Shown here piece by piece: positions 39,570-39,954 of a stretch of 39,954 nucleotides of DNA. The stretch lies in assembly GCF_003334255.1 (NCBI RefSeq), contig NZ_QOWU01000053.1, one strand, 5' to 3'. Under the pieces are notes generated by a model. That model had not been told where the DNA came from. It worked only from the letters and a program-made list of their open reading frames with translations, and made no database searches. Position 1 is the first letter of the stretch. Each line of letters begins with the position of its first letter. Source of the stretch: Escherichia coli. Lineage in GTDB: Bacteria; Pseudomonadota; Gammaproteobacteria; Enterobacterales; Enterobacteriaceae. Both the position numbers and the translations under genes were made by a program.

Positions 39570-39954
39570 TTACGAAAGCCCGCTCCCCGCAAGGACTGAC
39601 GCCAGATAGTTTCTGTCCATGGCTGCTTTTCGCATCTTACGTCTTAACCCTGCCTTGAATACCTTATCATTCGTCAAAATATTAATAGCAATGTGCCGTA
39701 TCCCTGAAAATAATTCTGCTGCATTTCCTCTTCTTATTTTGCAGTCGTCTTCATTCATTACCACGTCCAGACGCCAGTGCAGCTTATTCTCCACGTGCCA
39801 GTGATTTCGGATCGCTGTGGCGAATTTCTCAGCGGTTAAATCAGCAGAACTGATATAATATCTGACCGTCATTTCTGGCTCTTTCTTTTGTTCTGCTATT
39901 ATGGACCGAAAGGAGACTGCCACGCATAATTTCTTCAGCCCTTTCCATTCAAAC
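39570..39954 (-). mobile_element. yhhI: ISAs1-family (H-repeat-associated) transposase, C-terminal part; gene continues past window end
   Basis: Minus-strand translation contains [44 protein letters not shown], which I recognise as ISAs1/H-rpt transposase C-terminus. Confidence 0.7.

Follow-up and report, generated by a model that had tools for sequence, protein, structure and literature searches.

The 39,954-nucleotide stretch of Escherichia coli DNA analysed here (the window) very probably ends within yhhI, the only gene carried by a complete insertion sequence (IS) of 1291 bp. This element, ISEc1, is the H-repeat (H-rpt) of RhsB and belongs to the ISAs1 family. ISEc1 occupies the end of the RhsB island nearest yhhJ, and the island is one of several alternative cassettes found between nikR and yhhJ. 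At RhsB, yhhI as a mobile-element gene and ISEc1 are already known, as is the variability of the locus, yhhI and the H-rpt having been described there since the 1990s.

The yhhI gene at the window edge

An open frame on the minus strand enters the window at 39954 and ends at a TAA stop codon (39572-39570), encoding 127 residues plus the stop. The open reading frame (ORF) and its translation, a profile match, 100% identity and annotation all assign this feature (39570..39954, minus strand) to the 3′ part of yhhI, that is, to codons 252-378 and the stop codon. The N-terminal 251 codons lie past the window edge. From 39300 to 39954 the window agrees at every position (100% identity) with E. coli K-12 MG1655 and with many other strains. 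In RefSeq the matching K-12 gene, the first one downstream of yhhJ, is annotated as yhhI (b3484), ‘ISAs1-like element ISEc1 family transposase’. In the K-12 genome (locus L001) the ORF is complete and the full YhhI protein has 378 amino acids. The initial annotation, which described a transposase fragment at 39570-39954, gave the coding coordinates exactly, but the gene itself is full length in K-12 and seems a fragment because the window ends there.

Family assignment rests on both the piece and the whole. Against the NCBIfam profile NF033564, ‘ISAs1 family transposase’ (cut-off 70 bits), the 127-residue window piece alone scores 110.3 bits over profile positions 227-314 of 314, and full YhhI scores 412.4 bits. 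The full protein also matches the Pfam domains DDE_Tnp_1_assoc (PF13808, 1.9e-33) and DDE_Tnp_1 (PF01609, 1.7e-29), each from end to end. The proposal of an ISAs1/H-repeat transposase just past yhhJ is thus correct by NF033564, Pfam, annotation and complete identity to K-12 yhhI.

YhhI was aligned with 59 representatives that are 35-54% identical to it, found by searching 1.84 billion protein cluster representatives. Throughout this 60-sequence alignment the acidic residues D109, D172 and E306, which make up the DDE triad, are invariant, and D314 is likewise invariant. The codon for E306, the third residue of the triad, lies inside the window (39789..39791, minus strand; CTC on the plus strand, GAG on the coding strand), and those for D109 and D172 lie off the window at the equivalents of 40380-40382 and 40191-40193. 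The transposase reading depended on the full gene having its catalytic residues, and all three are kept.

Extent and ends of ISEc1

BLAST comparison with the other H-rpt copies of K-12 delimits an ISEc1 unit of exactly 1291 bp at L001 12261-13551, equivalent to window positions 39560-40850 (L001 positions are converted to window positions by adding 27299). Similarity to the ydcC copy (97.9%) and to the ybfL copy (95.5%) stops at the same 1291-bp limits, which place the in-window part of the element at 39560..39954 on the minus strand. By end alignment, the transposase-distal terminal inverted repeat (IRR) is CAGGGCAAGATTACGAAA (39560..39577). The other terminus is CAGGGAAAGATCATCAAA, and the two match at 14 of 18 positions, forming imperfect 18-bp repeats that begin with CAGGG. 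The element begins at 39560, 10 bp before the coding part, and the yhhI stop codon sits within IRR. A plain inverted-repeat scan of the region failed to pick out these true ends and is uninformative because the repeats are too imperfect.

We take the H-rpt of RhsB to be the ISAs1-family element that ISfinder names ISEc1; the name is supported by the RefSeq label and by the identity to the K-12 ydcC copy. Elements of this family are about 1.2-1.5 kb long (ISfinder range), and the 1291 bp of ISEc1 fall within that range. The family is further characterised by terminal inverted repeats of 14-22 bp starting with CAGGG (PMC11946415). The initial annotation had suggested a search for such ends in sequence extended beyond the window, and inverted repeats of the ISAs1 CAGGG type are indeed present at both ends of the element. 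All ISAs1 family features examined are present except a target duplication. YhhI would be expected to work as a DDE transposase, binding both CAGGG ends, cutting there and joining them to a staggered target.

The RhsB island and its alternatives between nikR and yhhJ

The K-12 gene order is yhhJ, yhhI, a truncated yibA-like gene, yhhH, rhsB and nikR (L001, NC_000913.3). The truncated gene (L001 13552-13898, window-equivalent 40851-41197) is labelled ‘lyase’ by PGAP and yrhC in NC_000913.3. It consists of the first ~115 codons of a yibA-like HEAT-repeat gene, cut exactly at the ISEc1 left terminus (L001 13552), and the same gene is complete in TUM14771 (L004 11824-12666). rhsB contains RHS repeats with a DUF4329 toxin domain at the tip, and yhhH is an Imm-NTF2-2 immunity gene. 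A GC-rich core with an AT-rich tip is the classic picture of an Rhs element, and RhsB has a core of 59-65% GC and a tip and downstream region of 33-42% GC. ISEc1 lies at the distal end of RhsB, downstream of the core ORF, the tip and the immunity gene, as befits an H-rpt.

Across E. coli, at least four different arrangements occupy the nikR-yhhJ slot. The RhsB element is present in K-12-type genomes, AH04 carries hicAB only, O157:H7 combines hicAB with an operon of GntR, PTS, FGGY-kinase, HPr and aldolase genes, and M16807 has this operon alone, with a yhhJ/aldolase junction that is common to Nissle 1917 at 100%. In a collection of 5426 complete genomes, which is biased toward clinical isolates so that the counts are descriptive only, yhhJ is joined to ISEc1 in 1829, to hicA (of hicAB) in 2074, to the aldolase of the PTS sugar operon in 1056 and to something else in ~467. 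The nikR-side breaks of all alleles fall within about 10 bp (L001 18789-18798). The yhhJ-side break of hicAB strains coincides with the yhhJ stop codon (39405), and that of the remaining strains falls at 39492-39495. The suggestion that this part of the chromosome has a history of acquisition or rearrangement is borne out by the multi-allelic state of the slot and by the absence of yhiJ and yhiL from about 23% of complete genomes.

An IS1397 stump in a split REP

Comparison of synteny had been proposed as a way to place a break-point between strains. Such a break-point exists, but its seat is 64 bp before the IS end, in a REP sequence that holds a stump of IS1397, and not at the IS end itself. 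Judged by alignment, the 64 bp between the split REP and the end of ISEc1 (39496..39559) are a stump of this REP-specific element of the IS3 family, comprising its terminal nucleotides 1-64, from the end of the element next to the 3′ end of the transposase. The alignment covers 65 nt at 96.9% identity to nucleotides 1-65 of intact 1432-bp copies (L023, L024); the stump is counted as 64 bp because the 65th nucleotide also serves as the initial C of ISEc1. The stump ends exactly at the start of ISEc1.

Alignment with M16807 places the left arm of a REP palindromic unit, GCCGGATAAGGCGT followed by TTA, at 39479..39495, where the IS1397 end interrupts it. A complete REP, GCCGGATAAGGCGTCACGCCGCATCCGGC, stands at the same spot in phylogroup-B2-type strains, and the REP of M16807 is uninterrupted. 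IS1397 inserts specifically into REP palindromic units (PMC1525189), and genuine insertions at znuB/ruvB and pepE/yjbB have the same layout of REP half, 3 nt and TGAACTG. No further pieces of IS1397 were found in the region, and K-12-type genomes are otherwise without IS1397 sequence there.

Just after the yhhJ stop codon lies a stable hairpin followed by a T-rich tract (39405..39459, plus strand; -28.3 kcal/mol, z = -4.3), which is probably an operon terminator or a degenerate REP. The hairpin region is core DNA outside the IS; it also occurs in strains without RhsB, including PTS-operon strains, and is conserved to 39492 in M16807. Rfam gave no match in 39000-39954, and a promoter and terminator scan returned chance-level hits only.

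Target duplication and age of the copy

ISAs1 relatives transpose with CAGGG ends and generate a 10-bp duplication (PMC11946415). Target-site duplications are absent at all eight distinct ISEc1 junction pairs compared, which comprise this copy, the ydcC copy, four copies in other contexts (L019-L022) and two from an identical-protein look-up (L026 and L029). A plasmid search yielded only 25 records with ISEc1 copies, several of them mislabelled chromosomes or chromosomal fragments, and these were used solely as extra junctions. As a 10-bp duplication marks an undisturbed insertion and not family membership, its absence argues for later rearrangement rather than against a place in the ISAs1 family. 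The missing duplication could alternatively mean that ISEc1 makes none, eight junctions being too small a sample to separate the two readings.

H-rpt is listed as an IS, and its transposition has not been observed (PMC3032704, genome paper). Sequence matching ISEc1 occurs at a median of 4 places per genome and at up to at least 40, and because copy number varies so widely, ISEc1-type elements may move in some lineages. The exact YhhI protein lies at the rhsB/yhhJ locus in 10 of the 10 places listed (44 contigs). Since the copy at the window edge has no target duplication, abuts truncated sequences at both ends and has its exact allele at one locus, it looks from its sequence like a structurally intact, old and fixed resident rather than a fresh insertion.

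History of the junction and role of ISEc1

We infer an order of events in three steps, which is the most economical and the likeliest history of the junction. IS1397 would have inserted into the REP downstream of yhhJ, and ISEc1 would then have landed in IS1397. A rearrangement at the ISEc1 terminus, or through ISEc1 homology, would finally have fused the element with the distal part of Rhs, with loss of the intervening DNA; this last step could have been an adjacent deletion or a recombination between two H-rpt copies. The predicted intermediate, with the ISEc1 left end, a 10-bp duplication and the rest of IS1397, occurs in 0 of the 5426 genomes.

Related junctions show rearranged forms of the element. 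TUM14771 (L004 9561-10138) has the same yhhJ-side junction and an ISEc1 with a 713-bp internal deletion, K-12 L001 12308-13020 being missing. The left end of that ISEc1 is of a different subtype with different flanking DNA, and the element is followed by a piece of IS630 and additional orphan Rhs tip modules. The left end of another ISEc1, in L026-L034 (IS at 1357-2647), is joined directly to sequence that encodes ..PDPIGLAG, the core-end motif of Rhs. L029 has kdpF-ybfA in front of this copy instead, and the end-point of this deletion or rearrangement is exactly the IS left terminus; neither the L026-type nor the L029 junction carries a target duplication. An end-anchored rearrangement is supported because TUM14771 has a derived form and the L029 end-point falls at the ISEc1 terminus.

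A wider reading is that ISEc1/H-rpt in E. coli reshapes Rhs loci, and itself spreads, mainly by end-anchored deletion or inter-copy recombination, not by simple insertion, and that the K-12 RhsB island was fixed between nikR and yhhJ in this manner. It draws on the nesting of REP, IS1397 and ISEc1 at 39479-39560, on the eight of eight junctions without duplication and on the rearrangements that end at an ISEc1 terminus, and we hold it to be tentative and rather unlikely.

That ISEc1 itself brought the RhsB island or yhiJ/yhiL to this place, for example within a composite or one-ended transposon, is very improbable. The IS does stand at the extreme end of the island, and rearrangement end-points elsewhere coincide with ISEc1 ends. 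However, the nikR-side boundary is common to unrelated cassettes within about 10 bp, and yhiJ/yhiL are 5.4 kb off, beyond a conserved operon. The IS was rejected as carrier of the island on three further grounds: the island holds a single ISEc1 copy, it has no target duplication, and its boundary is the REP/IS1397 junction, 64 bp outside the IS.

There is also very little probability that yhhI has been domesticated for a host function, such as promoting the exchange of Rhs toxin tips, rather than being a selfish IS gene. Domestication would fit an ORF that is intact though transposition was never observed (PMC3032704), as well as the recurrent association of H-rpt with Rhs elements, in which one left end lies exactly at the DPxGL core boundary. 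Yet the intact allele is seen in very closely related genomes only, so its intactness needs no selection, deleted and degenerate copies are common, and ISAs1 is a typical IS family whose members transpose in other species (PMC11946415). A decayed transposase remnant, meaning a genuine gene fragment or a pseudogene that lacks an intact surrounding element, is scarcely credible: the window shows just 127 codons, partial ISAs1 proteins are numerous in E. coli, K-12 itself has degenerate copies (ybfL, ybfQ, yncI) and TUM14771 has the internally deleted form at the same site, but K-12, whose sequence matches this part of the window at 100%, has the 378-aa ORF with end-to-end Pfam and NF033564 matches, the DDE triad and both element ends, and the remnant is thereby refuted for K-12-type genomes.

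The yhiJ-yhiL-yhiM neighbourhood and the rest of the window

The initial annotation placed the transposase next to AT-rich genes, yhiJ, yhiL and yhiM. Part of this stands, as yhiL and yhiJ are clearly AT-rich (34-38% GC), but yhiM has about 46% GC. The three genes are 5.4-10 kb from the IS, behind the yhiI-rbbA-yhhJ operon of normal GC content, and the relevant neighbour is instead the off-window RhsB. yhiL and yhiJ are missing from M16807 as they are from about 23% of complete genomes, and they have no demonstrable link to the IS because they lie 5.4 kb away behind that operon.

These two genes are paralogues, and their state is the reverse of that in MG1655. In yhiL (30589-32232) an extra A at 31814 produces one open frame, where the MG1655 gene is frameshifted; in yhiJ (32494-34116) a C-to-T change at 32701 creates a TAA stop at codon 70, where the MG1655 gene is intact. 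Over 31700-32800, 0 of the 5426 complete genomes are identical to the window, and the best match is 99.9%.

As a whole, the window is 99.95% identical to MG1655, with 17 substitutions and the one extra base at 31814 (comparison record L008 = NZ_CP032667.1, 218290-258243). From 31815 to the window end the coordinates are identical to those of L008, and the yhhI region is without differences. Elsewhere, yhiS (12569-13792, minus strand) is an intact 407-aa ORF, and the IS5 that splits it in MG1655 (L008 11854-13047) is absent from the window, which marks the source strain as K-12-like yet distinct from MG1655. Five Rfam small RNAs score above the gathering score, all on the minus strand: GadY (1308-1421), ES205 (7200-7271), AgrB as two tandem copies near dinQ (16706-16789 and 16937-17020) and ES036 (25798-25838). 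These small RNAs are expected for the part of the E. coli chromosome from the acid fitness island to uspB. Window positions 1-14000 hold long AT-rich stretches (34-45% GC) over the acid fitness island (gadX/gadW, hdeD/hdeAB, yhiD, dctR, slp) and yhiS, which are more extensive than the yhiJ/yhiL block.

Significance and comparison with known elements

The finding has little significance beyond correct annotation, since yhhI is named in current RefSeq. Its useful outputs are the exact limits of ISEc1, with an end at 39560, the recognition that the ‘fragment’ is a window-edge artefact, and a population-level view in which nikR-yhhJ is a multi-allelic slot occupied by RhsB, hicAB, the PTS sugar operon or combinations of these. 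The 64-bp IS1397 stump in the split REP, unannotated in NC_000913.3, is a small addition that would give the relative order of events at the island boundary.

IS1397 is recognisable here by the 96.9% match of its terminus and by a seat in a REP like that of genuine insertions; in contrast to those, only 64 of 1432 bp are left; the remainder is missing, as is the other REP arm. Rhs elements are polymorphic toxin loci, and this IS lies downstream of rhsB, whereas the Rhs genes themselves are off the window. With the ISAs1 family, represented by ISAs1 of Aeromonas salmonicida, IS1358 of Vibrio cholerae and Francci3_2330 and Francci3_2941 of Frankia, ISEc1 shares a single DDE transposase, matches to NF033564 and to PF13808 plus PF01609, CAGGG repeats and size. 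These relatives transpose and leave a 10-bp duplication, which is not seen at this copy or at the seven other ISEc1 junction pairs. The annotation of the yhhI locus in NC_000913.3 leaves the ISEc1 ends, the split REP and the IS1397 stump all unmarked. H-rptB of K-12 RhsB (yhhI, b3484) is the same element as the one entered at the window edge, with the same position between yhhJ and rhsB and 100% identity throughout the part that lies in the window.
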